DNA from: an uncultured Gammaproteobacteria bacterium | GTDB taxonomy: Bacteria > Patescibacteriota > Patescibacteriia > CAZVIU01 | DNA length: 36,290 nt | Direction: 5' to 3' | NCBI GenBank assembly: GCA_964626935.1 | Contig: CAZVIU010000003.1 | Coordinates: 1 to 36,290 of the forward strand | Shown: positions 2 through 23,588 of the stretch, one piece after another | Layout of the letters: every line of letters starts with the position of its first letter | Numbering within the stretch: position 1 is the stretch's first letter | Program-made: the position numbers and the translations under genes | The notes under the pieces: model-generated | The model's input: only the letters and a program-made list of their open reading frames with translations | The model's database searches: none | What the model was told of the DNA's origin: nothing

Positions 2-3000
2 TCAGCAGCCGGTGCCGGAGTTGGCACAGGTCTGACTGTTTCTTTAGCTCCGGATAATCCAGGAGCTTCAACTTGGGTTGTCGACGCAGCTAATGACACT
101 GCTTCATCACAAGGTTTAGCCACAGCTTTGAAGTTACGTTTTACTGCTTCAGCTGATGGCGCTGTTAAAGTCAAAACCTTGAAGCTCAAGAGAAGCGGTA
201 TTTCTGCTGATTCTGATTTGAAATCGCTTCACTTATACAGTGATGGTGTTCCAACACCGATGACTAGACTCGCCGATTATACTTCAATTGCTTCAGGCGT
301 TGTTACCTTTAATGATGCTAACGGCTTATTCACTGTGGCAGCTGGCAAAAGCTCTGATGTTGCAGTTCGTGTAGACCTTGATCGCAATACCGCAACTGGT
401 AAAACTCTTAGGTTTTCTCTTGAGGCTGCGGCTGATGTCGCCACTGATGGCAGTGCTGTTAGCGGTTCGCTCCCATTAACAAGCGCGACTCATGAAACTG
501 CTGCGGTCAGCGATTTTGCTCGTGTGCAGGTTTCAGGCGAAACTATTCCGGCGTCAGTTGATTCTGGCACCACCAATAAAGAAGCTTTACGCTTTAATTT
601 CCAGGCAACTGGTCAAAAAGTAGAGCTCCGTGGTGTTAATTTCAAAATGGTTGGCACGGCCGGAAACGCTGACATCACCAATCTTAAACTATTTGATGGC
701 GGCACCCAGCTTGGTTCAACCGTTCTCGGGTTAGCTTCAGATGGTACAGCTTGGTTTGATCTTTCGGCCAGCCCATTAGTAGTTAGCGCTGGTGTTACCA
801 AAACTTTAACAATTAATGTTGATGTTGTTGGCGGCGTAAACCGCACCTTTGAAATGACAGTACAGAAAGAAACAGACTGGGTTATTTGGGACACCAATTA
901 TAGCGCTTATGTTTTACCAGATGATTCTAGCGCTATTGGTACTTATACAGTGCTTGAGGGGGCTTCAAATATCTCTATCAATGCTGGTACGCTCACCATG
1001 AGCAAAGCCACTGATTCACCAACTGGCGATGTTACAAGAAGTTCTACCAATATTGAAGTTGCTAGATTTGATTTCAAAGCCAGCGGTGAAGCAGTTAAGA
1101 TTGAAAATGTTTATATGTGGTGTGACGTCTCTGACATTGGCGATACTGGAACCGGCGGTTTGGATAATATGAAACTTTTAGTTGATGGCGTGCAAGTTGG
1201 CACGACCGCCGATTGTACTGAAGAGGATGAAATTAATGTTAATCTTGGTTCAGCCTTCATTATTCCGGGTAATACCACTAAGACGTTATCAGTTAAAGCT
1301 GATACATATACTGTTGCTGCTGGCGCTCATACAGCTGGCGCGGTTGTTACTGTTTCTATTCGTCGAGATGACTCTACTTCTGCTCCGGGTACAGCTCGCG
1401 GTCAAGTATCGTTATCAGCTATTACCATGACTAATGTTACTGGCAATAGTTTGACCTTTAGAACTGGCGCTGTAACATCAGCCAGCAATGTTACACTCGG
1501 CAATTATTCAGCAACAAATCCAACAGGCGTAGCTAACGCCCAAGGCGTTCGTTTGGCCTCGTTTGTTGTCACTGGTGGTCTTGGTGAAGATGCCGATGTG
1601 ACGAGAATCCGATTGCGCGATGGTACAACTAACAGCAATCTAGGTGAAGACTTCCAGAATTTAAGAGTTATCCGCCGTGACACTGGAGCACAGGTTGGTA
1701 CCACTGTTGGCGCCTTAAATACTGGCTCAACAGTTGGTAATTATACCTTTACCCCAGGAACTGCTATTCGCGTTAAAAAATCAGAACAGTTAGTCTTTGA
1801 TGTCTATGCTGATGTTTTATCAACCGTAACTAACTCGGCTACTGTTTATACCGGTCTTGACCTACTGGACGTTAGCGCTACAGGTGTAGTTACTGGCGCT
1901 GCTGCTGATGACACTACAGCCAGACCCCTGCAGCAAATTTATCTAGCCGCTTCTGGAAACTTAACCGTGACTGCTGATGCGTCTACACCAAACGCTGATA
2001 ATCTAGTACTTGCTCAGACTGGAGTAGAATTGGCTCGTTTCAGGTTTGCAGCTGACGCGGCTGAAGCAGCCAATGTTTCGCAGGTTATTACCACCTTCCA
2101 GCACAGGAATCTTGGTGGTGATGTTTCAACCAACTCTGTTACTGGTACTTGGAGAAACCTGAAAGTCTATGAAGCAGAGTCAGGCGCACTTTTGGGCACA
2201 GCCGCAACCCTGTCAACTACGAACAATACAGTGCATCCGTATGCTACTTTTGCCGGACTTTCATGGAATATTCCAAAAGGCGGAGCTAAGACCTTAGTTG
2301 TTAAAGCTGACTTATCACCATTTGATGATGGTGGTGTGGCTAGCTCAACTTGGAGAGTGGAAATTCGTGAGAATTACACATCTAACAATGCTTCCGCCCA
2401 GGCGGACGAATCAGTCGCAGCTCGCGGCGTAGGCAGTGGTTCTGATCTTACTGGTGGCAGTTTAGATATTGGCGCTGATACTGATTCAGATGTTCGTGGT
2501 TCAGTAATGGATGTATTTAAGAGCAAGCTGACCCTAGCTCACGCGTCTGATGCCCCATCAGGAGTACAATCAGCTGGCACAGAGCAGACTGTGGCTAAGT
2601 TTGTGGTTAGTAACACTTCGGCTGGTGGTTACACTGCCATGCTTGAACTTCTGAATCTGACAATTACTGCAGCTGGCGCGTCACTTACCGGAGCTAGCGC
2701 TGATGTAAATGTGTACAAGTCATCAGTGACTACAGCCAACAGGTTATCAACGACTGATGACTGTTCAGTAACACTTGGTTGTCCGGCGGGTGGAAGTTGG
2801 GCTGGAACTGCCGGAGGCAATAAGACTTCAGTTACTGATGCTAACTTTACTGACACACAAATTAGCGCCGGATCAAGTCTTACCCTCATTGTTACCATGG
2901 AGACAAATACAGCCGGCTTTAGCGCCAATGAAACCTTAACGGTTGGTGTTGGTAGTCAAGCTGCGGTTAATTTTCTTAAATGGGATGATGATGCTAATGA

Positions 3001-3067
3001 CGCAACTGGTCGAGACTACACTGTTTCAACCAGCTTGCCGCTCACAGGTAAGACCCTCATCTACTAA
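2..3067 (+). CDS. Giant repetitive Thr/Ser/Ala/Gly-rich cell-surface protein (S-layer/adhesin-like), 5' end outside window
   Basis: The frame is open from nt 2 to TAA 3065-3067, with no stop before the TTG at 128 used by the ORF track. About seven divergent 130-150 aa modules share a pattern: hAxFxFxA, then V..h.h, then NhKLh.G...hGT, then KTLxVKAD. Examples are EALRFNFQATGQKVELRGVNF..NLKLFDGGTQLGST, IEVARFDFKASGEAVKIENVY..NMKLLVDGVQVGTT, VRLASFVVTGG..NLRVIRRDTGAQVGTT, VELARFRFAADAAEA..NLKVYEAESGALLGTA and TVAKFVVSNTSAGG. The composition is beta-rich, low-charge and Cys-poor, and a strong terminator follows. Function is inferred from composition and architecture only. Confidence 0.7.
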   Translation, partial: SAAGAGVGTGLTVSLAPDNPGASTWVVDAANDTASSQGLATALKLRFTASADGAVKVKTLKLKRSGISADSDLKSLHLYSDGVPTPMTRLADYTSIASGVVTFNDANGLFTVAAGKSSDVAVRVDLDRNTATGKTLRFSLEAAADVATDGSAVSGSLPLTSATHETAAVSDFARVQVSGETIPASVDSGTTNKEALRFNFQATGQKVELRGVNFKMVGTAGNADITNLKLFDGGTQLGSTVLGLASDGTAWFDLSASPLVVSAGVTKTLTINVDVVGGVNRTFEMTVQKETDWVIWDTNYSAYVLPDDSSAIGTYTVLEGASNISINAGTLTMSKATDSPTGDVTRSSTNIEVARFDFKASGEAVKIENVYMWCDVSDIGDTGTGGLDNMKLLVDGVQVGTTADCTEEDEINVNLGSAFIIPGNTTKTLSVKADTYTVAAGAHTAGAVVTVSIRRDDSTSAPGTARGQVSLSAITMTNVTGNSLTFRTGAVTSASNVTLGNYSATNPTGVANAQGVRLASFVVTGGLGEDADVTRIRLRDGTTNSNLGEDFQNLRVIRRDTGAQVGTTVGALNTGSTVGNYTFTPGTAIRVKKSEQLVFDVYADVLSTVTNSATVYTGLDLLDVSATGVVTGAAADDTTARPLQQIYLAASGNLTVTADASTPNADNLVLAQTGVELARFRFAADAAEAANVSQVITTFQHRNLGGDVSTNSVTGTWRNLKVYEAESGALLGTAATLSTTNNTVHPYATFAGLSWNIPKGGAKTLVVKADLSPFDDGGVASSTWRVEIRENYTSNNASAQADESVAARGVGSGSDLTGGSLDIGADTDSDVRGSVMDVFKSKLTLAHASDAPSGVQSAGTEQTVAKFVVSNTSAGGYTAMLELLNLTITAAGASLTGASADVNVYKSSVTTANRLSTTDDCSVTLGCPAGGSWAGTAGGNKTSVTDANFTDTQISAGSSLTLIVTMETNTAGFSANETLTVGVGSQAAVNFLKWDDDANDATGRDYTVSTSLPLTGKTLIY

Positions 3068-3135: not shown

Positions 3136-3168
3136 CCCCCCCCGATGTACATCGGGGGGGTTGTTTTT
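3136..3168 (+). terminator. Rho-independent terminator after surface-protein gene
   Basis: CCCCCCCCGAT-GTAC-ATCGGGGGGG is a perfect GC-rich hairpin (3136-3160) followed by TTGTTTTT. Confidence 0.85.
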
Positions 3169-3180: not shown

Positions 3181-3386
3181 GAGCCCGAAGCACCTTGGGC
3201 GCTTCTGGTTTTATTCTTGGGCCCGAAGCACCTTGGGCGCTTCGGGCCCGGCTATAGGCTTATCTTGTTTTGATCAGTTTATCGTGTTAATATCTTTGAG
3301 TCGGTTTGGTTATGAGCCCGAAGCGTCTTGGGCGTTTCGGATTTGGTTATATTTTCGGCCCGAAGCGCCCAAGGCGCTTCGGGCCC
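3181..3386. repeat. Four copies of palindromic REP-like element GCCCGAAGCRC-N4-6-GCGCTTCGGGC
   Basis: Copies lie at 3181-3208, 3219-3249, 3314-3340 and 3357-3386. Full copies read GGGCCCGAAGCACCTTGGGCGCTTCGGGCCC and are followed by a conserved RGCTAYNNGCT tail. Confidence 0.9.
3265..3293 (+). promoter_or_regulatory. Putative sigma70-type promoter for the first Wzy_C-TPR gene
   Basis: TTGTTT (3265-3270), a 17-nt spacer ending in TGT (extended -10), then TAATAT (3288-3293). This is a pattern match only. It would place REP copies 3 and 4 in the 5' UTR. Confidence 0.25.
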
Positions 3387-3392
3387 AGCTAT

Positions 3393-5744
3393 ATGCTAAA
3401 ATTTATTCGTAATCTTTTCTTATTTTCACCACTGATTTTTTTCGCTTACACGCCGTGGACTTTATATCCGGCGATCTTTGGCCGGACGATCATTTTTCAG
3501 ATCATTGTTGAAGTGATATTAGTTATAGTTATACTTGCTAATTTATTTGGGCGATCGTTAACCGGCGGAGAATTAGGAATTAAGCCCCGACGTAAAGCCC
3601 CGATATCTAAGATACAGGCTGCCGATCATAGTATCGGCACCCAAAGCGCTATTAGGAGCGCTTCGGGCTTTGTTTTGGGCCCGAAGCGCCTTGAGCGCTT
3701 CGGGCCCAGCTACTGGCTTCTCGGGATCCCAACCGAAGCGTCGGGAAATTATGAATTATGGGGACGAGCTAAGGAGATATTTTTTTCACCAATTGGGGCG
3801 AGCCTAATAATTTTTACTCTAGTTCAGTTTGTTTCTTATCTCTTTTCAGTTGATCAAGAGGCAAGCTTTTGGGGAAGTATGTCGCGAATGGATGGCATAT
3901 TTAGCTGGCTGCATATGGCAGCGCTTTTCTTTTTATTAGTTGCATTTTTGGATAAATCTGCCTGGTCCAAATTTTTAAAAATTAATGTTGTCATCGCTGG
4001 GGTCCTAAGTATTTTAGCCGTGATTCAGCATTTTTACGACCCTGTTCCTAAATATATAATTCAATCCGGTCGAGTTTATGCCACTTTTGGCAACCCAGTG
4101 TTTTTTGCCCTGTATTTATTGTTCACGATTTTTCTTACATTATATTTTTTATTGGGAGTTGAAACGAAACAAACATTGAGCCCGAAGCGCTATTATGAGC
4201 GCTTCGGGCTCAACAGACGACGCGTTGCGAAATATTTTTTTATCGGAATGCTCGCGATTTTACAAATAGTCGCGCTTTTTTGGACTGGGAGTCAGGGAGC
4301 AATTGGAGGATTTTTGGTTGGGATTTTGGTTCTTAGTTTAATAGGATTAATAAGGCAGTTCACTACCCCAGAGGTGGCGGCCACGCAAAGAATTAAGTTA
4401 GTGAGACTCATGGGAATTATAGGTATCGTCGGACTCATAAGTTTCATGGGTTTTTTCAAATTAGGTTTGGGGCAATTCGTTCGGTTACGCGAGCTTTCTT
4501 CAGTTGAAGGATTAGAAGCCCGAACAACTGTTTGGAAAATGGGTTTACAAGGATTTAAGGAACGGCCGATTTTGGGATTTGGCCCGTCAACTTTTGAATA
4601 CGTTTTTGATAAATATTATAATCCTGAACTTTTGCGGCACTCTTTTTACGAAACCGTTTCTAACAAGCCGCATAATATTTTTGTGGAAACGCTTGATCAT
4701 TTGGGGACTTTGGGATTTTTAAGTTATTTAGGTATATTTACCGCCGCCATCCTTGTTTTGCGAAAAATTAGAAAAATAGATTTTAAATTAGCTGTTATTG
4801 GTTTCGGACTTTTAGTCGCCTATCTTGGGGCCTTGCAATTTTCTTTTGATACAACTAATTCGTGGTATATGTTTGTGGTATTTTTGGCCTATATAACAGC
4901 AAGAGAACAAGAGAACAAGAGAACAAGAGAACAAGAGAACAGCGGGACTCTGTATCAGTCCGGTGGCCAGCCGATGGATACAAGACGGGCATCAAAACAT
5001 AAAAATAAACTTGTTTTCATGTTTTCATGTTTTAATGTTTTAGTGATAGCGGCGGCATTGTGGTTTGGCAACATTGAAGCTTGGGCGGCATCGGTACCCG
5101 GAGCCAGATCAAAAAATAAGTATTGGTTTCAAAAACCAATTAAGTGGGCCAATGAAGTTAGGAAAGCTATTGACGGGCCAAGTCCATATCATGATGAAAT
5201 TCGCGTAATTTTCGCGCAAGACTTGATCAAGTGGGAGGCGGGCGGCAATCTGCCAATGGTTGAGATTCAAGATCAAGTTAGTTTACTTAGGAGCAAGCTA
5301 GAAGAGAGCGCGAGTCAACACCCAAGTAATTTTCAATATCGTTTTACTTCGGCACAAATACAAGGCATTGAGGCAGAGAATTTTGACATGGCTAGATTAG
5401 GTGAAGCCATCAATTCCGCGCGTCAAGCGCGAGACTTATCACCGCGTCGTCAAGCGGCCTATTTAATTTTAGGCAAGCTTTTGCTTCAAAATGGAGATTT
5501 AAGAAGCGCCGAAGAGTTTGCGAATAAAGCGGTTGAGTTATATAAATTTGCCCCAGAATCGCACTGGTTTTTGGGCATAATCAAAAGCGCTGAAGAAAGA
5601 CTAGATGAAGCTGTTGCCGAATTCAGGCTGGCTCGTGAACTTGGCTACGATTTTAAGCCGCAAGAGATAATTTATTGGATGAGTATTAATAAAAAACGTG
5701 ATAGGGCGGAAGAGAATGATGAGCTAAGGTTGCTGCTTCAGTAA
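3393..5744 (+). CDS. O-antigen-ligase-family (Wzy_C) polytopic membrane protein with C-terminal TPR domain, paralog 1 (carries in-frame repeat insertions)
   Basis: The N-terminus MLKFIRNLFLFSPLIFFAYTPWTLYP aligns with paralogs 2-4. Shared motifs are SVDQEASFWGSMSRMDG, GNPVFFALYL, TGSQGA and ILGFGPSTFEYVFDKYYNPELLRHSFYETVSNKPHNIFVETL. The C-terminal TPR-like helices carry LSPRRQ and ESHWFLG. The ORF is open back to 3306 only because two REP copies are stop-free, so ATG 3393 is preferred. Confidence 0.8.
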   Translation: MLKFIRNLFLFSPLIFFAYTPWTLYPAIFGRTIIFQIIVEVILVIVILANLFGRSLTGGELGIKPRRKAPISKIQAADHSIGTQSAIRSASGFVLGPKRLERFGPSYWLLGIPTEASGNYELWGRAKEIFFSPIGASLIIFTLVQFVSYLFSVDQEASFWGSMSRMDGIFSWLHMAALFFLLVAFLDKSAWSKFLKINVVIAGVLSILAVIQHFYDPVPKYIIQSGRVYATFGNPVFFALYLLFTIFLTLYFLLGVETKQTLSPKRYYERFGLNRRRVAKYFFIGMLAILQIVALFWTGSQGAIGGFLVGILVLSLIGLIRQFTTPEVAATQRIKLVRLMGIIGIVGLISFMGFFKLGLGQFVRLRELSSVEGLEARTTVWKMGLQGFKERPILGFGPSTFEYVFDKYYNPELLRHSFYETVSNKPHNIFVETLDHLGTLGFLSYLGIFTAAILVLRKIRKIDFKLAVIGFGLLVAYLGALQFSFDTTNSWYMFVVFLAYITAREQENKRTREQENSGTLYQSGGQPMDTRRASKHKNKLVFMFSCFNVLVIAAALWFGNIEAWAASVPGARSKNKYWFQKPIKWANEVRKAIDGPSPYHDEIRVIFAQDLIKWEAGGNLPMVEIQDQVSLLRSKLEESASQHPSNFQYRFTSAQIQGIEAENFDMARLGEAINSARQARDLSPRRQAAYLILGKLLLQNGDLRSAEEFANKAVELYKFAPESHWFLGIIKSAEERLDEAVAEFRLARELGYDFKPQEIIYWMSINKKRDRAEENDELRLLLQ
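3644..3707. repeat. REP-like palindromes (one partial, one full copy) inside paralog-1 CDS
   Basis: 3644-3669 is AAGCGCTATTAGGAGCGCTTCGGGC (partial). 3677-3707 is GGGCCCGAAGCGCCTTGAGCGCTTCGGGCCC (full). They are translated in-frame as ..SAIRSASGFVLGPKRLERFGPSYW. Confidence 0.9.
4178..4211. repeat. REP-like palindrome inside paralog-1 CDS
   Basis: GAGCCCGAAGCGCTATTATGAGCGCTTCGGGCTC is read in-frame as LSPKRYYERFGL, in a loop that is shorter in paralogs 2-4. Confidence 0.9.
4901..4940 (+). repeat. Perfect octamer array (AAGAGAAC)x5 inside CDS
   Basis: This is a direct read of five exact units, translated REQENKRTREQEN. Confidence 0.95.
5013..5042 (+). repeat. Octamer array GTTTTCAT/GTTTTAAT x3.7 inside CDS
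   Basis: GTTTTCAT GTTTTCAT GTTTTAAT GTTTTA is translated FMFSCFNVL. The same array type occurs at 31392-31424 and, reverse-complemented, at 25549-25580. Confidence 0.9.
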
Positions 5745-5786
5745 AAATAAGCCATGGATTAATTGCGAATTGCAGTTTTCAGATTG

Positions 5787-5828
5787 CAAATTATAAATCT
5801 GAAATTTTAAATCATAAATTTGAAATTA
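5787..5828 (+). repeat. Heptamer array (NAAATYN)x6 abutting start codon of paralog 2
   Basis: CAAATTA TAAATCT GAAATTT TAAATCA TAAATTT GAAATTA ends 3 nt before ATG 5832. Confidence 0.8.
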
Positions 5829-5831
5829 TTT

Positions 5832-8054
5832 ATGTCTTTAGAAAAAGTGTGTTTTAAAATTTTGCGTCTTGGTGTTTATGCGAGCCTGGTCGCGCCTTTT
5901 TTTGTATTTCCGTGGACAATTTATCCGTATCTTTATGCCAAGGCATTATACATTAATATTATTGTAGCTGTAATGCTGCCATTTTACGTAGTTTTATTAA
6001 CCACAAATCCGGATTTTCGACCTAAAAAAAATCCCCCAACTATTGCCGTAATAGCATTTTTTCTTATCTTAATAGTTTCTAGTATTTTTAGTCCTGATCC
6101 GGGGCGGGCTTTTTGGGGAACACAAGAAAGATCAGCCGGACTATTTTTTCTGGCGCATTACTTCTTATTATTTTTAATCGCCAGCTCTATTTTTCGTAAC
6201 GAGGAGAGCTGGAAGAAACTTTTAATATTTTCTCTTTTTATAAGCATACTTGTCGCTGGCGGAACTTGGTGGGATATTGCCATGGAAAAAATCTGGAAGC
6301 CCGGAGCAGGGACAAGAACTGGCGGCACCTTGTCTAACCCTATTTTTTATGCCGCCTATCTCTTATTTCACATCCCCCCATCCCTTTGGTTAAGTTTCTC
6401 GGGTCGTAAAAAGGCGCATAAAATTGCTTGGCTGGCCGTTTTTATTTTTCTTAGTATTTCTTTGTTTTATACGCTTACTCGTGGCGCCCTACTTGGTTAC
6501 TTTGGTATGTTTTTCTTTGGTTTAATTTTAACTGGCTTATGTGTACAGAGATACCGAAAATGGATGTTTTTAGCTTCTAGTTTGATAGTAGTTTTTTTTG
6601 CCTTGATTTTTTTATTACGAACCAACCCGGTAATTTTAAAAAATCCGATATTAGGACGCCTCGCTTCGATTTCGCCCAAAGAAATAACCGCCCTAACCCG
6701 GCTAGAAGCTTGGCAAATTGCTTGGTATGGCTTTAAAGAAAAACCGATTTTAGGCTGGGGGCCGGAAAATTATTACGCTATTTTTAATAAATTTTATAAT
6801 CCAAAACTCTTGCGTTTTTCATATTATGAAACCTGGTCTGATAAACCGCACAGCATTGTTTTTGAAATTTTATCAACAACTGGTTTTTTGGGTCTAGCGG
6901 CTTATCTTGCGATCTATGGGTTGATCCTTGCTCATGGTTTTAAAAAATTGCGTAAAAAAACCATATCGGCAAAATTAACCATTCCGCTTTTAATGATTTT
7001 TGTCGGGTTTTTTATACAAAATCTTTTTGGTATTGATACAGTGAGTACCTACCTGATGTTTTATATCTTATTGGCTTTTGCCGGGTTTATTTTATATCCT
7101 ACAAATACTATAAGTCCCGTGAGTTTTGTAAGATCCGTAAACCCGATAGGAAATGTAAAACGTCCGGTAATTCTTGCCGGTATTGCAACAAGCATTCTTT
7201 CTCTTGTTTCAATCTGGCAATGGAACATCAAACCTGCTTACGCAGGCCATCTTACAGCCAAAGCAACAACCGTGGAGAATTTTGGTGCGGCTACGGATCT
7301 TTGGCAAAAAGCGTTAGATATTAAACATCCGTGGGCTTACGATGCCCAAGTTGAATACTTAAAAGGCATCACGAGAATAGTTCAGCGATCAGCAAATACG
7401 CAGTTTGAAGACTTAAAACCACTTCTCTTGCGCGGCGAGATGGCGGCAGAAGACCTAACAGCCAGTCACAAGCAAAATGCCTATTTTAATTATTTAGCCG
7501 GTAGATTTTATAGTGAATGGGGCAAGTTTGAATTTAAATATTTTGTTGAAGCAGAAAAATTATTTAAAAAATCTATTGAATTGAGCCCGCGTCGTCAGCA
7601 GCTTTTTTATGGTTTGGGTAGAATGTATTTGCTTTCCGGAAGAACTGACCAATCCTTAAAAGTATTTGAAGATTTAGTTAAGCTTGATCCCGGGGTTGAT
7701 GAATCTCACTGGTTTTATGGTTTGGCCCTGCGTCAAGCTGATCGCGGAGTCCAAGCCTACGAAGAGATAAAAGAGGCCATTCGTTTAGGATACAATGCGG
7801 TTGATTCAGGAGAGGTATTAGTTTTAGCCGAAGTAGCCACAAAAGAAAATGACCTCAAGGCGCTTCAAAAAATTTATGAAAACGCGATTGCCATTGATCC
7901 TAAGAATGGTGATTGGCACGCCCGGTTGGCGGCGTTGTATTTAGAATTGGGAAGAAAGGATGAGGCGCGCAAATTAGTTATCAGGGCAGTAGAGTTGGAC
8001 CCGACGCTTAAAGAAGAAGCAACCAAATTTTTGAAATTATTAGAAATTCAGTAG
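5832..8054 (+). CDS. Wzy_C (O-antigen-ligase family) membrane protein with C-terminal TPR domain, paralog 2
   Basis: Motifs are SPDPGRAFWGTQERSAG, TRGALLG and ILGWGPENYYAIFNKFYNPKLLRFSYYETWSDKPHSIVFEIL, with about 10-12 hydrophobic helices. TPR motifs are ELSPRRQQLFYGLGRMYLLSGR and DPKNGDWHARLAALYLELGRKDEARKLVIRAVELDP. ATG 5832 is preferred over the track's TTG 5820. Confidence 0.85.
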   Translation: MSLEKVCFKILRLGVYASLVAPFFVFPWTIYPYLYAKALYINIIVAVMLPFYVVLLTTNPDFRPKKNPPTIAVIAFFLILIVSSIFSPDPGRAFWGTQERSAGLFFLAHYFLLFLIASSIFRNEESWKKLLIFSLFISILVAGGTWWDIAMEKIWKPGAGTRTGGTLSNPIFYAAYLLFHIPPSLWLSFSGRKKAHKIAWLAVFIFLSISLFYTLTRGALLGYFGMFFFGLILTGLCVQRYRKWMFLASSLIVVFFALIFLLRTNPVILKNPILGRLASISPKEITALTRLEAWQIAWYGFKEKPILGWGPENYYAIFNKFYNPKLLRFSYYETWSDKPHSIVFEILSTTGFLGLAAYLAIYGLILAHGFKKLRKKTISAKLTIPLLMIFVGFFIQNLFGIDTVSTYLMFYILLAFAGFILYPTNTISPVSFVRSVNPIGNVKRPVILAGIATSILSLVSIWQWNIKPAYAGHLTAKATTVENFGAATDLWQKALDIKHPWAYDAQVEYLKGITRIVQRSANTQFEDLKPLLLRGEMAAEDLTASHKQNAYFNYLAGRFYSEWGKFEFKYFVEAEKLFKKSIELSPRRQQLFYGLGRMYLLSGRTDQSLKVFEDLVKLDPGVDESHWFYGLALRQADRGVQAYEEIKEAIRLGYNAVDSGEVLVLAEVATKENDLKALQKIYENAIAIDPKNGDWHARLAALYLELGRKDEARKLVIRAVELDPTLKEEATKFLKLLEIQ

Positions 8055-8160
8055 AAATTAGTTAGAAATTAAATAGAAATTAAGTATAAATAAATAGAAA
8101 TTAGCTCGCTCACGCTCGCGAAATTAGGTTACAACCTAATTTCTACTTAATTTCTACTTC
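8041..8160. repeat. Composite spacer element: phased TAGAAATT direct repeats, central hairpin, inverted AATTTCTA repeats
   Basis: TAGAAATT lies at 8041, 8052, 8063, 8074 and 8095 (11-nt phase, with degenerate TATAAATA at 8085). The hairpin AAATTAGGTT-AC-AACCTAATTT is at 8121-8142. AATTTCTA lies at 8138 and 8149. The array overlaps the paralog-2 stop codon TAG at 8052-8054. Confidence 0.85.
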
Positions 8161-8186
8161 GTTTCGTGAAGCTAATTTTTTTATTT

Positions 8187-10430
8187 ATGTTGGAAACCCG
8201 TCTCTTGCGATCAATTAAGATTTTATTGTACGCGGTACTTTTTGCTCCAGCCGTAGTAACTTACTCAACTGCTTATCCTTTTTTACATGGCAAGGTTTTC
8301 TGGATTGAGATATTCATAGAATTGCTGCTCGGTTTGTACTTAGTTTTAGTTTTAACCAGCAAAGATTATTGGCCAAAGAAAACGCCGCTTTTTTGGGCTA
8401 TGAGCGCGTTTATAGGCTCACTTGTTATTTCAACGATTTTTTCAGTTGATCGATCAATCAGTTTCTGGGGTGATTGGTCCCGTATGACCGGGCTTATTCT
8501 TTATCTACATCTTTTTGCATTTTTCATCATTTTTTCATCAGTTATAAAAAAAGATTATGAGCGACGCAACTATTTGATATTTTTTAGCTTACTCGGCACG
8601 GTTCTATCTATATTCGCCTGGATTCAAAGATACAATACAAAATTTTTAAAAGCAGTTTGGGTGGGTGGCCGTGTCGGTAGCACCATAGATAATCCGGCCT
8701 TTTTCGCGATTTTTTTAATATTCATAATTTTCATCAATCTCTGGTTAGCTTCTGTTGTTAGTAAAAAATACCGATTATTATTTTTTCTAAGCGCAATTTT
8801 TAATTTTCTAACCGTTTTTATTACCCAAACTAGAGGTGTTATTTTGGGTCTTTTTGCCGGAATGGCCATCTTTGCTTTTTTTAGAGTTATTAAGAGCACG
8901 CTTAAGTGGAAAATAGGCTTGGCAATATTTTTGGCATTGATCTTTGCCGCATTTATTTTTAAACCAACATATAATATTTTAACGCGCGCGCCTGGCCTTG
9001 GCAGAGTCTTAGAAAGTACCCTAATAGACTCCACCGCACAAACACGCCTCTTAACCTGGAAAATAGCAACGCGTGCCTGGCTCGCGCGACCAATTACTGG
9101 CTGGGGACACGAAGCCTTTTATGCGGCATTTAATAAATTCTATAAACCGGAATTTGTTCGTTTTTCTTTTTCTGAAACCTGGTTTGATAAAAGCCATAAT
9201 ATTTTTTTAGACCTTTTGTCAATGAACGGGCTCTTGGGTTTTTTTAGCTATATTTCTATTTTTATTTTTGGTTATATTGTAATAAGTCGAAGCAAAAAGT
9301 TGCCGATGGATTCGACGAGCTCGCCACAAGTGGTTACACAAAATAATGCATATATTAACAAATCACTAGTGCCACTTTATATCTCGCTAATTACGACCTA
9401 TTTCGTTGGAAATTTTTTTGAGTTTGATACGCCGGCCTCGCTTTTAGCCATATTTTTTATATTTGCCCTGATTTATTCATATAGCAACACAAATGATGCG
9501 AATGAGGCACGTTTGACGCCAGCGCAAATTGGGCGGCCAATACAGCCGTCAGTTGTCGCCCTCATCATTATAATTATCAGCATATTGTTATGGTTTGTGC
9601 CGATTAAAAGCGTTATTGCTTCCCGCGGTCTTGATCGCGCCAGTGACCTAATAAGAAATAATTTTGCCCAAGGCGCCAGCGCTTATCGCGAAATAATTGT
9701 AAAAAATAGGCGTTTTTCCGAGCCAGCAGCTCTGGAATACGCCATGCGCCTAAATCAGCTTTTATTAACTGATGACGAGGCCGTAATTAAATATAAAAAC
9801 GACTTTGATTTGACCATGAATAAACTTGAGGATAGCGCGAGGCGCCATAAATTTGATGTAAATTACGTTCTGGCCTATAGTCTTTTAGCCAATACCAGAG
9901 CCACAATGGAAACTGATTTTGCCAAAAAGGCTGAAAAATTATTAGAAGAAAATCGCTTGATGATTAATCCAGGTCGTCAGCAGGTTCTTCTCATGCTTGG
10001 AGAGACAAAACTATTATTAGACAAAAACGATGAAGCGATAAATATTTTAAAACAAGCGCAAGACTTGGCGCCAACTGCCCGTGAAATTAGTTATCGACTA
10101 GCCATTGTTTATTTTGCTAGTGGACTTGAAGAAGAAGGATTCGCGCAACTTAAGAAAGCCAAAATTTTAGGCATGGCTGATATCGGCGCGCAGCCGCTCT
10201 TAGTTTTAATAAGTGTAAACGCTTCCAGGGGTAATTGGGTAAAAGTCGCGGAACTTTACGAAAAATCTGTTAAGCTTGAGCCGAATAATGCCAAACTCTT
10301 TGCCCAAATGGCCACAGCTTATGCTACAATCGGGAATAAGAAACGAGCCCGAGAAGCTGTGGCGCGCGCTGTAGAACTTGACCCGAAATTGAAAGGAGAA
10401 GGAGAACAATTTTTAAGACAAGTTAAATAA
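8187..10430 (+). CDS. Wzy_C (O-antigen-ligase family) membrane protein with C-terminal TPR domain, paralog 3
   Basis: Motifs are SVDRSISFWGDWSRMTG, TRGVILG and ITGWGHEAFYAAFNKFYKPEFVRFSFSETWFDKSHNIFLDLL. The TPR motif is LEPNNAKLFAQMATAYATIGNKKRAREAVARAVELDP. ATG 8187 (MLETRLLRSIKILLYAV) aligns with the paralog N-termini. The track starts at GTG 8166. Confidence 0.85.
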   Translation: MLETRLLRSIKILLYAVLFAPAVVTYSTAYPFLHGKVFWIEIFIELLLGLYLVLVLTSKDYWPKKTPLFWAMSAFIGSLVISTIFSVDRSISFWGDWSRMTGLILYLHLFAFFIIFSSVIKKDYERRNYLIFFSLLGTVLSIFAWIQRYNTKFLKAVWVGGRVGSTIDNPAFFAIFLIFIIFINLWLASVVSKKYRLLFFLSAIFNFLTVFITQTRGVILGLFAGMAIFAFFRVIKSTLKWKIGLAIFLALIFAAFIFKPTYNILTRAPGLGRVLESTLIDSTAQTRLLTWKIATRAWLARPITGWGHEAFYAAFNKFYKPEFVRFSFSETWFDKSHNIFLDLLSMNGLLGFFSYISIFIFGYIVISRSKKLPMDSTSSPQVVTQNNAYINKSLVPLYISLITTYFVGNFFEFDTPASLLAIFFIFALIYSYSNTNDANEARLTPAQIGRPIQPSVVALIIIIISILLWFVPIKSVIASRGLDRASDLIRNNFAQGASAYREIIVKNRRFSEPAALEYAMRLNQLLLTDDEAVIKYKNDFDLTMNKLEDSARRHKFDVNYVLAYSLLANTRATMETDFAKKAEKLLEENRLMINPGRQQVLLMLGETKLLLDKNDEAINILKQAQDLAPTAREISYRLAIVYFASGLEEEGFAQLKKAKILGMADIGAQPLLVLISVNASRGNWVKVAELYEKSVKLEPNNAKLFAQMATAYATIGNKKRAREAVARAVELDPKLKGEGEQFLRQVK

Positions 10431-10440
10431 AAACTTAATT

Positions 10441-10553
10441 GAAATTCGGTGGAAATTTGATAGAAATTATCCCCATCTAAATCCTCCCCCTGCGATACAG
10501 GGGGAGGAAGTAGGAGAGGGTTAATTTCAACTGAATTTCGCGCAGTGAATTTC
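10441..10553. repeat. Composite spacer element: phased GAAATT repeats, GC hairpin, inverted AATTTC repeats
   Basis: GAAATT lies at 10441, 10452 and 10463 (11-nt phase). The hairpin CCTCCCCCTG-CGATA-CAGGGGGAGG is at 10483-10507. AATTTC lies at 10523, 10534 and 10548. The architecture matches 8041-8160. Confidence 0.85.
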
Positions 10554-10569
10554 TATTGAATCTCCGACA

Positions 10570-12786
10570 GTGAGTACCGAAAAACTATCAAAATATCTTT
10601 ACAGATTCATAGTTATTGGTCTGTATGCGGCATTACTCATGCCCTTTATTTATATTGATAATCTTATTTTTCCATTTATCACCGGAAAGGTTTTTATTTT
10701 TCAAATTTTGATTGAAGTCTTATTGGCAGCTTGTTTGCTCCTGATTTATTTAGACAGAAGTTTCCTGCCTAAACAGAGCCTTGTTCTCATCTCGGTTTTT
10801 TTATTTTTAATAAGCATAATTTTATCAACAATTTTTTCATATGACCCTGATCGCAGTTTCTGGGGTAATTATGAACGAATGAGCGGAACATTCACACTTC
10901 TGCATTTTGTCGCTTATTTTTTCATACTCGTTGGTATTTTACGCACGCCGCTTACCTGGAAACGGTATCTTACAGCCGCTGTAGCGCTCTCCGGAGTACA
11001 GGCGGTTATTGGTATAGCGCAATACTATTCTACGAATTTACTTTTAACAGCTGGTGGCGGAAGAATTTGGGGCACGCTGGGTAATTATATCTATTTAGCT
11101 ACTTATGCGATTTTTCACATTTTTATTGGCGCGATGCTTTTGGCGGAAGCAGGCAACAAATCGCCATCCAGTAAGAGCAAGTGGTCAAGGGTGGTTTTTG
11201 GCGGATTGATCTTCTTAAATGTGGTTGTGCTTTATCTCTCGGGCACGCGAGGCGGATATGTTGGTTTTTTATCAGGCTTGAGTTTGGTTGCTATTATTTC
11301 TGTTTTTGTAGCCAAAAATAAGAAAGTAAAATTAATTTTTATCAGCGCCCTCATTCTGGTAATTCTCTTCATGGTTATGGGGCGTGTTTATCGCAGCACT
11401 AAATTTGCGCGGAGCCTTCCCATTGTTGGGCCGCTTTTAAATTTAGACATTAAAGCCGATACTGGTTTTACTCGTTTGATCGGTTGGCAATTAGCCCTAA
11501 AGGGTTGGCAAGATAAACCAATTTTCGGTTGGGGACCAGAAAATTACTATTACGCCTTTAATAAGCATTTCGATCCTAGATCACTTGAAAGAGGGTATTA
11601 TGAAACTTGGTTTGATCGGCCGCACAATATAGTCTTTGATGTTTTATCTACCCAAGGGTTAGTCGGGCTCTTAACTTATCTAAGTATTTTTGTAAGTATT
11701 TTTATAGTTTCTTGGCGCGCTTGGCGACAAAAAATAATTTTAGGGTGGCAATTTGCCCTGTCCTTAGGGGGCGTGGGAGCATACTTTACACAAAATCTTT
11801 TCGTTTTTGATCAGCCAAGTTCTTTTCTTTTATTTTATTTGTTTATTGCTTATTTTCATTCATTGGCTGACGGAGAGCGTAAAAGTATTGAGATGGTTAA
11901 AAACGAGAATCAGAAACGTTCAAGCATTTATTTGGCGATTTTATTGGGGGTAGGGGTTTTGTGGCTGGGATATCAAAGCGTCCTAAAGCCATGGAAAGCC
12001 GGGGTTACCTCTATTGCGGCTGAAAGACTACTCACGACTGATTTTAATCAAGCTTTTGCTATATACCGGCGTGCCACCGAAATAGAAACACCATATAAAG
12101 ATGATATACAGGTTAGTTTAGCCAGAATCGTGCATGAGCGAGCCGGAACTGACGCGATCTTTATTCGCGATAATAAAGAAAAAATAGATTTTACCGTGAG
12201 CGAAGTTAAAAAATTCATTGAAATTCACCCTAACGATGTTTATCCATATATGGCCCTGGCGCAACTCTACGGACTTTTAGCCATTATTGATCCACAATAT
12301 TTTGCGCCGGCTGAAGAAGCCCTTGCCAGGGCCGCGCTTCTCTCGCCAAAACGGCAGCAGATCTATTTTGTCTGGGCCAGGTTTAAGGTCATGCAAAAAG
12401 ACTACACGCAAGCTCACGAGCTAATACAAAAAACCATAGATTTCGATCCTCAAGTTTCAGAAACTTATTGGTATCAAGCGTTAATTTATAATTCCGAAGC
12501 CAATGATGCTAAGGCCTTAGAATACATGAAAGAAGCAAGAAAAAGAGGTTATGGGTGGAAAAATACCACGGAAGCATTTTTATTCGGCAGATTGCTCGAG
12601 ATAAACAAAGATTATGATCAAATACCGCAAGTTTTAAAAGAGATCATTAGCTTAGATTCTAAGGCGGAAAACTATTATTATCTAGCCACTGCTTATCAGC
12701 GCTTGGGGAAAAACGAAGAAGCTCAAAGAGCGCTGGGAAAAGCAGTGGAGACGGACCCAAATATTTTACAAAAAATGCAAAAGTGA
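10570..12786 (+). CDS. Wzy_C (O-antigen-ligase family) membrane protein with C-terminal TPR domain, paralog 4
   Basis: Motifs are SYDPDRSFWGNYERMSG, TRGGYVG and IFGWGPENYYYAFNKHFDPRSLERGYYETWFDRPHNIVFDVL. TPR motifs are LLSPKRQQIYFVWARF, ETYWYQALIY and AENYYYLATAYQRLGKNEEAQRALGKAVETDP. The start is GTG. Confidence 0.85.
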   Translation: MSTEKLSKYLYRFIVIGLYAALLMPFIYIDNLIFPFITGKVFIFQILIEVLLAACLLLIYLDRSFLPKQSLVLISVFLFLISIILSTIFSYDPDRSFWGNYERMSGTFTLLHFVAYFFILVGILRTPLTWKRYLTAAVALSGVQAVIGIAQYYSTNLLLTAGGGRIWGTLGNYIYLATYAIFHIFIGAMLLAEAGNKSPSSKSKWSRVVFGGLIFLNVVVLYLSGTRGGYVGFLSGLSLVAIISVFVAKNKKVKLIFISALILVILFMVMGRVYRSTKFARSLPIVGPLLNLDIKADTGFTRLIGWQLALKGWQDKPIFGWGPENYYYAFNKHFDPRSLERGYYETWFDRPHNIVFDVLSTQGLVGLLTYLSIFVSIFIVSWRAWRQKIILGWQFALSLGGVGAYFTQNLFVFDQPSSFLLFYLFIAYFHSLADGERKSIEMVKNENQKRSSIYLAILLGVGVLWLGYQSVLKPWKAGVTSIAAERLLTTDFNQAFAIYRRATEIETPYKDDIQVSLARIVHERAGTDAIFIRDNKEKIDFTVSEVKKFIEIHPNDVYPYMALAQLYGLLAIIDPQYFAPAEEALARAALLSPKRQQIYFVWARFKVMQKDYTQAHELIQKTIDFDPQVSETYWYQALIYNSEANDAKALEYMKEARKRGYGWKNTTEAFLFGRLLEINKDYDQIPQVLKEIISLDSKAENYYYLATAYQRLGKNEEAQRALGKAVETDPNILQKMQK

Positions 12787-12856: not shown

Positions 12857-14014
12857 TTAATATTTGTATAGCTTAACCGTTTTTATAAGCATTTTGTCAA
12901 AGTTGAATTTTTCTTGGAATTGCCTCGCGGTAGCGTGGCTTAAATTGTTGCGTAACTCTTGATTATCAATAAATTTTTTAAGAGCATTTACAATTGCCCT
13001 TGAATCAGCTGGCGGCACTAAAAGGCCGCTTGTTTCATTTTCTAACATTTCTGGTATGGCGCCCACATTTGTCGCTATAATTGGCACACCGGCTTGTATA
13101 GCTTCAAGCAAGGCATAAGGCAGACCCTCTTTTACCGAAGGGAGCACAAAGAGGTCAAAGGCCTTTAGATAGCGAGCTGCATCAGGCAGGGAGCCGATAA
13201 GATAAAAATTTTGCAATCCATAATTCTTAATTCTTAATTCTAAATTCTCGCGTTCTGGGCCAGAACCGATAATGATGAAACTTGGTTCGACCCCTTCTTT
13301 CTTAAGTACGGCTGCTGCATCAATGAGATATTCAATACCCTTGGTTTTATAAAGATTGGCGATGGTGATAATCCACAGCGGGGAATTAAGAATTGAGAAT
13401 TTAGAATTAAGCTTTGCACGCGCCTCATCGCGTGAAAGAAAACTAATTGGATTGATGCCGTGGGGGATTATGGCAAGTTTTTCCTGATCGCAGATTTTAT
13501 TTTTTAGCGCGGCGGCATAATCATATTGAGAGAGCGTAATTATTCTATCGTGAATTTTGCCAGCAACGCGCTCCATAAATACATATAGTTTTTTGCGCCA
13601 CCAAGGCAGAGGTTCGTTAAAAACCCAGCCGTGGGCAGTGTAAATTAATTTAGGTTTTAGGTTGTAGGTTGTAGGTTGTAGGAATTTTTTAGCCACTGTG
13701 CTGATGAGGCTGGCTTTGGAGCTATTTAGATGGACGATGCTGGGCTGCTCCTTTTTAAAAAATTGTGCTAGCTCAAAAATTGCCGCGATATCTTTAAGCG
13801 GATTAATTTCACGGACGAGATTTTTAAAAGTATGCGTATTAATATCCGCTTCTTTGCATTTTTGTATCAATTCCTGACTACCCTCCGCGCCAGATGCAAC
13901 AGTAATATCAAACTCATCTTTTAAGGCAGTTGCCAAATCAAAAACATAGGCTTGCGCGCCACCCCATTCGCCTTGAGTTACCACATAAATTAGCTTTAAT
14001 TTTGCTGGTTGCAT
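12857..14014 (-). CDS. GT4-family (GT-B) glycosyltransferase
   Basis: The N-terminus is KLIYVVTQGEWGGAQAYVFDLA. The C-terminal donor-binding motif is FVLPSVKEGLPYALLEAIQAGVPIIATNVGAIPEMLENETSGLLVPP (EX7E). Confidence 0.9.
   Translation of the reverse strand: MQPAKLKLIYVVTQGEWGGAQAYVFDLATALKDEFDITVASGAEGSQELIQKCKEADINTHTFKNLVREINPLKDIAAIFELAQFFKKEQPSIVHLNSSKASLISTVAKKFLQPTTYNLKPKLIYTAHGWVFNEPLPWWRKKLYVFMERVAGKIHDRIITLSQYDYAAALKNKICDQEKLAIIPHGINPISFLSRDEARAKLNSKFSILNSPLWIITIANLYKTKGIEYLIDAAAVLKKEGVEPSFIIIGSGPERENLELRIKNYGLQNFYLIGSLPDAARYLKAFDLFVLPSVKEGLPYALLEAIQAGVPIIATNVGAIPEMLENETSGLLVPPADSRAIVNALKKFIDNQELRNNLSHATARQFQEKFNFDKMLIKTVKLYKY
13221..13248. repeat. Heptamer array TAATTCT x4 inside GT4 CDS
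   Basis: TAATTCT TAATTCT TAATTCT AAATTCT is read on the minus strand as ENLELRIKNY. Confidence 0.9.
13383..13411. repeat. Heptamer array GAATTAA x4, inverted partner of 13221-13248, inside the same CDS
   Basis: GAATTAA GAATTGA GAATTTA GAATTAA G is read on the minus strand as KLNSKFSILNS. It lies 134 nt from the inverted array. Confidence 0.9.
13651..13682. repeat. Heptamer array TAGGTTK x4.6 inside GT4 CDS
   Basis: TAGGTTT TAGGTTG TAGGTTG TAGGTTG TAGG is read on the minus strand as QPTTYNLKPK. Confidence 0.9.
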
Positions 14015-14076
14015 ATAAGCATTGATCTTGATATTATAGTGTGATATAGTGGTTTATTCAAGTATCTGATTATTGA

Positions 14077-14140
14077 GCGTTTAGCGCATAGCGGTTAGCG
14101 TTTAGTTAATTGTTCTAAACCCTAAACCCTAAACCCTAGG
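14077..14140. repeat. Two heptamer arrays in divergent intergenic region
   Basis: GCGTTTA GCGCATA GCGGTTA GCGTTTA lies at 14077-14104. CTAAACC CTAAACC CTAAACC CTAGG lies at 14115-14140 and ends at the TTG start at 14141. Confidence 0.85.
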
Positions 14141-15139
14141 TTGGTGTACGAGAAACTAAAAAATGCAAAAGTATTGGTTACCGGTGGGGCCGGCTTTATT
14201 GGCTCGCATCTTTCGCGCCGGCTTTTGGATTTGGGCGCGTATGTCGTGGTTTTAGATAATTTAAGTACTGGCGACAAAAATAATTTGAAATCATGCTTAG
14301 ATTTTCCAAATTTTGATTTTTTTCAAGGTGATGTAAATATTAGAGAGCAGGTCGCCCATGTTTTTAATCATGAAAAAATTGATTATGTTTTTCACGGCGC
14401 TGCTGTTGTCGGAGTAAAAAGAGTTGAGGAGGATCCGCTTTTAGTCCTGCGAGATATTGACGGGATAAGAAATATTTTAGAACTGGCACGCGTTCATGGC
14501 GTAAAAAAAGTAGTTTTTTGTTCTTCGTCAGAAGCTTATGGCGAACCGCAAACCTTACCAGAGCGTGAGGATGGGCCGATAAATCCAAATCCGCGCGATC
14601 CTTACGCGCTTGTTAAGCTCCAGGGTGAGAATTTGATTAGAATTTATGCCGAAAAAATGGGACTTCCTGGCTGTTCTCTGCGTTATTTTAATGTTTACGG
14701 TCCCAATCAAATTGCTTCCGCCTATGGTTTTGTGGTAGGAATTTTTATAAATCAAGTTTTGCAGGGGATAAATCCAACCGTTTTTGGCGATGGCACTCAA
14801 ACACGAGATTTTGTTTATATTGATGATAATATTGAAGCCAATGTGAGAGCGTTAATTTTAGACACGGCTAATAATGGCGAAGTTATCAATGTGGGCAGCG
14901 GCAGACAAACAACCATTTTAGATTTAGCGGAAAGGATTGCTCGGTTGTCAGGAAAAGATCTGCCCTCATTGCGTTTGCCAGAAAGAAAGATTGAGATCCG
15001 TTATCGTGCCCCAGACATAACAAAAATGAAAGAATTACTTGGATTCACGCCGCAGGTTTCGTTGGATGATGGTGTGCGGAAAACAATTGAGTGGTACAAG
15101 AATTTCATTGAGCACCCATCGCCGAACGATTATATTTAG
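14141..15139 (+). CDS. NAD-dependent epimerase/dehydratase (extended SDR; UDP-sugar 4-epimerase-like)
   Basis: VLVTGGAGFIGSHL is a Rossmann motif. The SSSEAYG and YALVK (YxxxK) catalytic motifs are present, as is the FNVYGP motif. The start is TTG 14141 or GTG 14144. Confidence 0.85.
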   Translation: MVYEKLKNAKVLVTGGAGFIGSHLSRRLLDLGAYVVVLDNLSTGDKNNLKSCLDFPNFDFFQGDVNIREQVAHVFNHEKIDYVFHGAAVVGVKRVEEDPLLVLRDIDGIRNILELARVHGVKKVVFCSSSEAYGEPQTLPEREDGPINPNPRDPYALVKLQGENLIRIYAEKMGLPGCSLRYFNVYGPNQIASAYGFVVGIFINQVLQGINPTVFGDGTQTRDFVYIDDNIEANVRALILDTANNGEVINVGSGRQTTILDLAERIARLSGKDLPSLRLPERKIEIRYRAPDITKMKELLGFTPQVSLDDGVRKTIEWYKNFIEHPSPNDYI

Positions 15140-16562: not shown

Positions 16563-16572
16563 TGACTGACGA

Positions 16573-17887: not shown

Positions 17888-17926
17888 AGGTTCAGTTAGA
17901 TTGTCGCTGTTTCTACGGTGATAACT

Positions 17927-23582: not shown

Positions 23583-23588
23583 TTTATT

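Follow-up and report, generated by a model that had tools for sequence, protein, structure and literature searches.

Tandem WaaL-like transferases with tetratricopeptide repeat tails, candidate glycosylation enzymes of a Patescibacterial surface protein

In a stretch of Patescibacterial DNA of 36,290 nucleotides (contig CAZVIU010000003.1 of assembly GCA_964626935.1, positions 1 to 36,290; the whole stretch is called the window below), four consecutive genes encode proteins in which a Wzy_C membrane domain is followed by a C-terminal tetratricopeptide repeat (TPR) domain. The conserved residues and a structural model of these paralogs, named A to D in gene order, indicate that their core is a lipid-linked-glycan transferase of the WaaL/O-oligosaccharyltransferase (O-OTase) type. 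We give an even chance to the reading that the four are dedicated protein O-OTases for the large surface protein encoded directly upstream of them, here called 'up'. Patescibacteria, or Candidate Phyla Radiation (CPR) bacteria, are ultra-small, mostly uncultured episymbionts; their surface mediates host attachment, and its proteins and glycans are barely known.

Four tandem genes join a Wzy_C domain to a TPR tail

The first-pass annotation of the window, made from its letters, had described four consecutive same-strand Wzy_C-TPR genes of 738-783 amino acids (aa), and the open reading frames (ORFs) and Pfam matches agree with that description (Table 1). All four paralogs match Pfam Wzy_C (PF04932) with E-values of 3e-16 to 1e-20 and scores of 60-71 bits, against a gathering score of 31.7 bits. 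TPR matches fall within the last ~230-270 residues of each protein; the models above cutoff are TPR_19, TPR_2, TPR_8 and others in B and C, and TPR_19, TPR_14 and TPR_17 in D, while in A the TPR matches stay below cutoff. As had also been described, one extra hydrophobic helix, the thirteenth transmembrane helix (TM13), precedes the TPR tail, which measures 225-276 aa. NCBIfam gave sub-threshold matches only, to IctB and to an exosortase-associated 'putative O-glycosylation ligase'.

Pairwise identity among the four proteins is 24-28%. The motifs that they had been said to share are real, but only S.D...(S/A)FWG and an approximate ETW.DKPHNI occur in every copy. A lacks TRG, reading SQG where B, C and D have it, and GWGPENYY is exact in just two copies, B and D, with C reading GWGHEAFY and A reading GFGPSTFE. 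LSP(R/K)RQ occurs in A, B and D, with INPGRQ in C, and (L/R)GY is present in A, B and D and absent from C. A 136-aa antisense ORF within the gene for paralog C (8624-9034, minus strand) is probably spurious.

The membrane core resembles WaaL and O-OTases

Conservation was read from a family alignment of 67 sequences (A2), a membrane-domain alignment of 22 (A3) and one of 107 members drawn from the window and 84 related loci. Few residues are invariant in A2 and A3. Residue numbers are those of paralog B throughout. R104, N173, R294, G312, G314, H344 and G355 are invariant in 107/107 members; D341 is kept in 106, R221 (the Arg of TRG) in 105, R166 in 104 and E337 in 102 of the 107. Since R104, N173, R294, H344 and G355 do not vary among the 107 members, the resemblance between them cannot be due to chance. 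Paralogs B, C and D carry R221, R294 and H344 together with H-[N/S]-x9-G355-xx-G358, which is the signature of WaaL/O-OTase-type ligases, and the spacing from R221 to R294 to H344, 73 and 50 residues, is the same as in WaaL.

When a full-length profile was searched against the PDB, the matches were dominated by TPR proteins, and the membrane domain was therefore searched alone. Its profile matched WaaL of Cupriavidus metallidurans (7TPG, E 2e-16) and a 610-aa 'oligosaccharyltransferase' (9RMK, E 4.7e-10), and TRG, R..W and H-N-x9-G-xx-G align residue for residue with both structures. Paralog B was chosen for modelling. The AlphaFold2 model, built on alignment A2, reached a mean predicted local distance difference test score (pLDDT) of 93.6 and a predicted TM-score (pTM) of 0.91. 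Apart from TPR proteins, Foldseek matched it to WaaL (7tpg_B), with a target-normalised TM-score of 0.66 over 450 columns at ~16% identity, and the model has a GT-C_B membrane fold in which a large external loop joins TM9 to TM10. In the comparison with the catalytic His and Arg of WaaL, which the first-pass annotation had proposed, the Arg/Arg/His set aligns with that of 7TPG and the model superposes on 7tpg_B. Together, the WaaL-like residues, their spacing and the modelled fold identify the core of the paralogs as a probable WaaL/O-OTase-type lipid-linked-glycan transferase. The conserved catalytic signature fits ligases and OTases better than it does a generic Wzy_C protein.

The TPR tail and the catalytic loop are both predicted to be external

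Hydropathy and the helices of the paralog B model give 13 TM helices. In the 107 members, the N-terminus and the six 'in' loops hold 22 Lys and Arg in 89 residues, versus 4.6 in the 74 residues of the five short 'out' loops, where they are mostly the conserved catalytic Arg. The N-terminus is predicted to lie inside, with four elements facing outward, namely the SFWG loop, the G-x-R..GNP loop, TRG and the 80-residue loop with R294 and H344. TM10-12 bring the chain back to the cytoplasm, where a poorly ordered linker of ~23 residues leads into TM13. With 13 TM helices and a Lys/Arg bias that puts the N-terminus inside, the TPR domain is predicted to emerge on the same extracytoplasmic side as the catalytic PHN loop. 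The first-pass annotation had named this point beforehand as one that could overturn its proposal, and both parts are predicted to be external.

AlphaFold2 forms 14 helices, arranged as TPR repeats, in residues 488-743 of paralog B, and the profile matches structures of consensus TPR proteins and of the TPR domain of OGT. Within the tail, S-P-x-R-Q is nearly invariant (P590 in 104/107 members and Q593 in 98/107), and this conservation points to a fixed functional contact.

The family is typical of Patescibacteria and its arrays are old

A related-locus search, with a profile of seven closer sequences and one genome per GTDB species, found at least 582 confirmed loci, the best 80 of which are in Patescibacterial metagenome-assembled genomes (MAGs), some under generic labels. 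With phmmer, 2,299 representatives of 50%-identity clusters matched at E <= 1e-30 (1.84 billion cluster representatives searched exhaustively), and nearly all of the best 150 align over their full length. Homologues of paralog B are nearly all Wzy_C-TPR proteins of 700-800 aa, annotated as 'O-antigen ligase family protein' or 'O-antigen ligase/TPR repeat protein'. Those with a taxonomic name all belong to Patescibacteria/CPR (Parcu-, Azam-, Kaiser-, Uhr-, Pace- and Spechtbacteria). The nearest relative of B, 75% identical, lies on a short Logan contig. A TPR tail is present on 109 of the 110 family ORFs in the retrieved loci. The survey of the fusion that had been called for thus reveals a large, phylum-typical family, no peculiarity of this genome. 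Our literature search found no paper linking CPR bacteria with O-antigen ligase.

Many MAGs in which the cassette described below occurs (at loci L003, L005, L012, L018, L022 and others; L numbers designate related loci) are labelled 'uncultured Gammaproteobacteria bacterium' or 'uncultured Candidatus Saccharibacteria bacterium' (binchicken/TPA records). These labels look like placeholders or mis-assignments.

Arrays of two to four adjacent copies occur at 14/82 related loci, with four copies at L003, L005 and L015 and three at L018, L020, L043 and L070. In a neighbour-joining tree, built without support values, paralog A of the window falls within a clade of eight genes that each stand first in their array, and paralog D within a clade of seven that each stand last. 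The D clade is nested in a clade of 46 members, together with window B and most of the single-copy genes that adjoin 'up', and the second- and third-position genes of other arrays make separate clades. Judged by its place in the tree, paralog D is probably the orthologue of the widespread single-copy gene that adjoins 'up' in other genomes. Genes in the same position are 28-33% identical across genomes, versus 24-28% for paralogs within a genome; the duplications are therefore older than the divergence of the lineages, and gene order has been kept. Old and maintained duplications had been proposed from the low similarity of the four copies, and the positional clades and the identity contrast both bear this out.

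The window paralogs resemble one another most in the catalytic loop (40% identity) and least in the TPR domain (20%); within positional clades, TPR identity is 27-29%. That the TPR domain is better conserved within positional clades than between paralogs fits a paralog-specific recognition role.

A conserved cassette links the array to a giant Ig-repeat protein

The gene for 'up' runs off the window at its left edge. The protein has no Pfam or NCBIfam match, and its 224 homologues at E <= 1e-5 are labelled as hypothetical proteins. Among the 120 homologues listed, lengths range from ~650 to 1,510 aa, most being 1,100-1,360 aa, and the named ones come from Patescibacteria or an unclassified bacterium, except for one partial Cloacimonetes protein; the nearest relative is 89% identical and lies on a short Logan contig. 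Full-length relatives have a signal peptide of the Sec type as well as a conserved N-terminal domain, which PG_binding_1 (PF01471) replaces in some members. The AlphaFold2 model of 'up' (pLDDT 87.7) is all-beta, with ~9-10 immunoglobulin (Ig)-like beta-sandwich modules, and Foldseek searches with it returned generic multi-Ig surface proteins in the PDB and no known S-layer (surface-layer) protein. The protein is rich in Thr, Ser, Ala and Gly, with 22.8% Ser plus Thr versus 12% in neighbouring ORFs, an isoelectric point of 4.6 and four Cys.

Of the 58 loci whose upstream DNA extends for 3.5 kb or more, 35 have an 'up' homologue as the immediate upstream neighbour of the Wzy_C-TPR gene or array, in the same orientation (an example is L003, 2129-5764). 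Such a homologue precedes every array that has enough flank, and the closest homologues of 'up' all adjoin arrays. Further upstream, again on the same strand, is a gene for a sigma-70 factor of the extracytoplasmic function (ECF) type at 27/27 GTDB loci and a DUF5667 gene at 25/27, which suggests a sigma/anti-sigma-like pair dedicated to the cassette. No paper mentioning DUF5667 was found in the literature search. A strong terminator-like hairpin follows 'up' in the window, suggesting that 'up' is transcribed apart from the ligase array, like S-layer genes. The conserved cassette consists of ECF sigma, DUF5667, the giant Ig-repeat protein, one or more Wzy_C-TPR genes and glycan genes. We regard the 'up' family, Patescibacteria-specific and with members of ~1,150-1,430 aa, as candidate major surface or S-layer-like proteins of CPR bacteria.

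Proposed function and its alternatives

A WaaL-fold ligase in a phylum without lipopolysaccharide (LPS), an outward TPR domain, an adjacent Ser/Thr-rich wall protein and a glycan cluster together argue for a dedicated O-OTase and its acceptor. In the mechanism that we infer, including the glycan donor, 'up' as the acceptor and the division of labour between the copies, the glycan would be assembled on a lipid carrier by the neighbouring GT4 and GT2 glycosyltransferases and deoxysugar enzymes and then flipped outward. The resulting polyprenyl-diphosphate-glycan would be the donor, with R221 and R294 binding its diphosphate, and H344 would activate a Ser, Thr or Tyr hydroxyl of the acceptor. The outward TPR domain, held by TM13 above the catalytic loop, would capture that acceptor, the secreted Ser/Thr-rich Ig-repeat wall protein of ~1,200 aa encoded directly upstream. 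The paralogs may differ in site, module or glycan specificity, and D would be the ancestral core enzyme, while A looks degenerate in this genome.

Several observations weigh against this proposal. No 'up' gene is adjacent at 23 of the 58 loci, so that the family is not strictly tied to that acceptor. A WaaL-type signature by itself cannot tell protein acceptors from lipid or glycan ones, and the placing of the TPR domain over the active site draws on the predicted topology and the high pTM only. Both the function of the CPR family and the glycosylation of 'up' are deduced from sequence and context. The domains PglL_A (PF15864) and Wzy_C_2 (PF11846) were not matched in the paralogs at E <= 0.01; these are the marker domains of the PglL/PglS class, and membership of that class was rejected in their absence. 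Finally, the 36-kb window holds no Wzx flippase, ATP-binding cassette (ABC) exporter or initiating phosphoglycosyl transferase, and Wzx was found within 10 kb at only 7/82 related loci; the genes for export and initiation must therefore be elsewhere.

An unlikely, though serious, alternative is that the paralogs are ligases whose acceptor for a lipid-linked glycopolymer is not a protein but, for instance, a membrane glycolipid anchor or a wall polymer; the TPR domain would then be a scaffold that faces the wall or the machinery of synthesis, and 'up' would be co-regulated envelope cargo. WaaL, which has the identical signature, acts on a glycolipid acceptor, and the literature ties the Wzy_C family to lipoteichoic acid. 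TacL of pneumococci, a lipoteichoic-acid ligase of the Wzy_C family, has a glycolipid anchor as its acceptor. The loci without 'up' lie in ordinary glycan clusters, that at L001 having NeuB, CTP_transf_3 and Wzx, and the peptidoglycan-binding domain in some 'up' members means that 'up' could bind a polymer and not carry it. This alternative, however, leaves unexplained why a secreted Ser/Thr-rich protein should be the tightest and most conserved neighbour and why arrays occur only beside 'up', and TPRs on glycosyltransferases usually recognise protein, as in OGT and TMTC. If the acceptor were nevertheless a lipid or wall polymer, the family would be the main envelope glycopolymer ligase of the phylum.

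We find it harder still to support a division of labour within one pathway, in which some copies would be Wzy-type polymerases and another the final ligase or OTase, or in which the copies would form a hetero-oligomer. Wzy polymerases and WaaL ligases both belong to the Wzy_C superfamily, array order is conserved with a single-copy core enzyme in the last-position clade and add-ons in the other positions, and the nine downstream glycosyltransferases could build a polymer. Yet all copies keep the ligase-type Arg/Arg/His, H-N-x9-G-xx-G and the TPR tail, and one enzyme suffices in single-copy genomes. Neither Wzx nor a Wzz-type co-polymerase, the expected companions of a Wzy polymerase, is encoded in the window. 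The first-pass annotation had left a TPR-guided ligase, polymerase or OTase side by side; a ligase or O-OTase is favored by the topology and the linkage to 'up', whereas a polymerase role is disfavored by the ligase signature in all copies and the lack of Wzz and Wzx nearby.

It is highly improbable that no glycan is transferred at all, the Wzy_C fold being reused for another membrane function (as in the 'bicarbonate transporter' proposal for cyanobacterial IctB) or for a non-catalytic receptor: paralog A shows that a catalytic Arg can go missing and there are weak matches to IctB (TIGR00947), but these reach only 39-67 bits against a cutoff of 366, so that identity with IctB was rejected, and the WaaL catalytic residues are kept in 105-107 of the 107 members, whose genes sit inside glycan-synthesis clusters.

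Extending the reading of the paralogs as dedicated O-OTases, we tentatively sketch a phylum-wide, ECF-sigma-linked cassette in which an Ig-repeat wall protein would be O-glycosylated by one to four TPR-guided WaaL-fold OTases of ancient divergence, each reading a different module, strand or glycan. Such a cassette, possible rather than probable as a whole, would be a convergent counterpart of TMTC1-4 and the first defined CPR surface glycoprotein system. If the O-OTase reading holds, the cassette identifies at one stroke a probable main surface glycoprotein, the enzymes that glycosylate it and its regulator, and offers a testable system for studying how a TPR domain steers a WaaL-fold enzyme to a protein acceptor. 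TPR-guided O-OTases of distinct specificity would also widen the range of enzymes for bioconjugate glycoengineering.

Comparison with known systems

The fusion class had been thought functionally uncharacterised and classical WaaL, PglL and Wzy to lack TPRs, which does not stand in the light of published systems. WsfB of Paenibacillus alvei, a predicted O-OTase for the S-layer protein, is described as a Wzy_C protein with a C-terminal TPR, the review that describes it also credits PglL with a TPR motif, and in Geobacillus the TPR belongs to a separate protein, WsaA, that partners WsaB. A TPR-tailed transferase of the Wzy_C/WaaL fold, the glycosylation of surface proteins and the annotation 'O-antigen ligase/TPR' are thus already known. 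What is new here is the size and phylum-specificity of the family, its order-conserved ancient arrays, and the cassette with the ECF sigma/DUF5667 pair and the giant Ig-repeat protein. The CPR family, its arrays and the linkage to an acceptor are uncharacterised.

The closest precedent is the glycosylation of S-layers in Firmicutes. WsfB, going by its description only, is alike in its Wzy_C domain and C-terminal external TPR, in belonging to a monoderm without LPS and in its cluster for a surface-protein glycan, the acceptor being a large secreted surface protein. The P. alvei cluster contains rml genes, glycosyltransferases, a methyltransferase and an asparagine-synthase homologue, and the window too has an asparagine-synthase homologue. 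In Geobacillus, the S-layer genes adjoin their S-layer glycosylation (slg) clusters. Unlike WsfB, the CPR proteins form a large family of their own, in which as many as four anciently duplicated genes stand in a row. These genes adjoin not an S-layer protein of the S-layer homology (SLH) type but an Ig-repeat protein that has an N-terminal domain of its own or PG_binding_1, and the ECF sigma/DUF5667 pair belongs to the CPR cassette.

With WaaL (C. metallidurans 7TPG/7TPJ; Escherichia coli) the paralogs share the fold, the Arg/Arg/His triad and its spacing, H[NSQ]X9GXX[GTY] and the large TM9-TM10 loop, whereas WaaL has neither a thirteenth helix nor a TPR and its acceptor is lipid A-core. To our knowledge, Patescibacteria lack LPS, and no LPS gene is present in the window. 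A role as WaaL proper, the LPS ligase, was set aside as improbable on the general knowledge that the phylum, to which all named relatives belong, is free of LPS.

In the O-OTase PglS, the chain crosses the membrane in 13 TM helices, and a C-terminal domain in the periplasm makes a cleft over the active site; the equivalent Arg residues of PglS are thought to hold the diphosphate of undecaprenyl diphosphate (Und-PP), and its H324A variant is inactive. Dedicated O-OTases, namely TfpO, TfpM and PglS, are typically encoded beside their substrates. PglL, PglS, TfpO and TfpM of Gram-negative bacteria (compared through 9RMK and an AlphaFold model of PglS) share with the paralogs the Wzy_C/WaaL-like core, the catalytic His and the Und-PP Arg, and PglS shares the 13 helices and the C-terminal external domain as well. 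This domain is a TPR superhelix of 225-276 aa in the CPR proteins versus ~110 aa in PglS. The acceptors of PglL, PglS, TfpO and TfpM are pilin or general periplasmic proteins, whereas that proposed for the CPR proteins is a giant Ig-repeat protein.

The first-pass annotation had also drawn an analogy with TMTC and OGT. Like the paralogs, TMTC1-4 (polytopic) and OGT (soluble) are glycosyltransferases fused to TPRs, and TMTC1-4 are four paralogous O-mannosyltransferases of the eukaryotic endoplasmic reticulum that serve proteins of repeated beta-sandwich domains, the cadherins. TMTC enzymes, however, belong to the GT-C/PMT clan and use dolichyl-phosphate-mannose as donor, whereas the window proteins have a WaaL-type membrane fold and no PMT-family match (PMT_2/DUF1736) was found in them. 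Homology with TMTC was rejected on the grounds of the fold, and the analogy is acceptable as convergence.

Paralog A and its palindromic repeats

Paralog A departs from the other copies in several respects. Gln replaces the Arg of TRG, and only one other of the 107 members lacks this Arg; the other members of the first-position clade retain it. Its TPR tail is ~45 aa shorter than in the other copies, and it carries a 75-aa insertion after TM2 and a second insertion in the cytoplasmic loop between TM6 and TM7. Both insertions are in-frame copies of a GC-rich palindromic element. Alternative starts for the gene lie at 3306 (812 aa, the longest ORF) and 3312.

Seven copies of the element were located (3184-3208, 3222-3246, 3317-3341, 3359-3383, 3640-3669, 3680-3704 and 4181-4210), and a search with the palindrome pattern gave 5 matches versus 0 expected. 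All seven are restricted to 1 kb: two are intergenic, two lie near the start of the gene for paralog A, and three fall in its coding sequence, where they translate in frame to GPKRLERFGPSY- and SPKRYYERFG-type peptides. The palindrome looks like an element of the repetitive extragenic palindromic (REP) or miniature inverted-repeat transposable element (MITE) kind that is invading a gene. Paralog A may be decaying or impaired in this genome. The proposal that the array consists of four specificity variants agrees with the pattern of TPR divergence but is too strong for A, given its lost Arg, short tail and repeat insertions.

Other features of the window

The features are listed in Table 1. Downstream of the array, from 12857 to 36204, the 23-kb glycan cluster encodes six GT4 and three GT2 glycosyltransferases in all, and in relatives the minus-strand GT4 gene, the epimerase gene, GT4 genes and the asparagine-synthase homologue keep synteny downstream.

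Table 1. Coordinates of features in the window and of the sigma-factor region in related loci
Feature	Position	Strand	Remarks
'up' protein	2-3067	+	C-terminal 1,021 aa of ~1,200 aa; cut at left window edge; open from base 2
Terminator-like hairpin	3137-3160	+	CCCCCCCGATGTACATCGGGGGGG; 10 pairs, 8 of them G-C, then a T run; 70 nt past the 'up' stop
Palindromic element cluster, seven copies	3184-4210		GC-rich, ~31 nt, GGGCCCGAAGCGC-N5-GCGCTTCGGGCCC and variants with a longer loop
Paralog A	3393-5744	+	783 aa; Wzy_C + TPR; first-position clade
Paralog B	5820-8054	+	744 aa; Wzy_C + TPR; copy chosen for modelling
Paralog B, catalytic external loop (TM9-TM10)	6615-6860	+	Residues 266-347; R294, G312-W-G314, E337, D341, H344
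Paralog B, TM13	7167-7229	+	Residues 450-470; predicted to take the C-terminal domain outside
Paralog B, TPR domain (predicted extracytoplasmic)	7230-8051	+	Residues 471-744; ~7 helix pairs
Paralog C	8166-10430	+	754 aa; Wzy_C + TPR
Paralog D	10570-12786	+	738 aa; Wzy_C + TPR; last-position clade
GT4 (minus strand), NAD-dependent epimerase/dehydratase, three GT4	12857-19153		Syntenic with relatives
AAA_28 ATPase-like gene (minus strand), DAO-family FAD oxidoreductase, small cupin	19279-22460		
Rest of glycan cluster, part 1	22539-36204		Two GT4, asparagine-synthase homologue, S-adenosylmethionine (SAM) methyltransferase, sugar C-methyltransferase
Rest of glycan cluster, part 2	22539-36204		4,6-dehydratase-like, RmlD-like and cupin genes, GFO/IDH/MocA oxidoreductase, three GT2
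ECF sigma/DUF5667 region in relatives	L084 1986-3778; L083 257-1928		Off the left edge in the window

A gene for a sugar C-methyltransferase (Methyltransf_13/14) stands beside 4,6-dehydratase-like and cupin/isomerase-like genes (29097-30434 and 27571-29110), which hints at a C-methylated (branched-chain) deoxysugar in the glycan. The AAA_28, DAO-family and small cupin genes have no homologue in any of the 82 related loci and may form a variable or inserted segment. Within the AAA_28 gene lies an antisense ORF of 199 aa (19690-20289, plus strand) that matches no family and is probably spurious.

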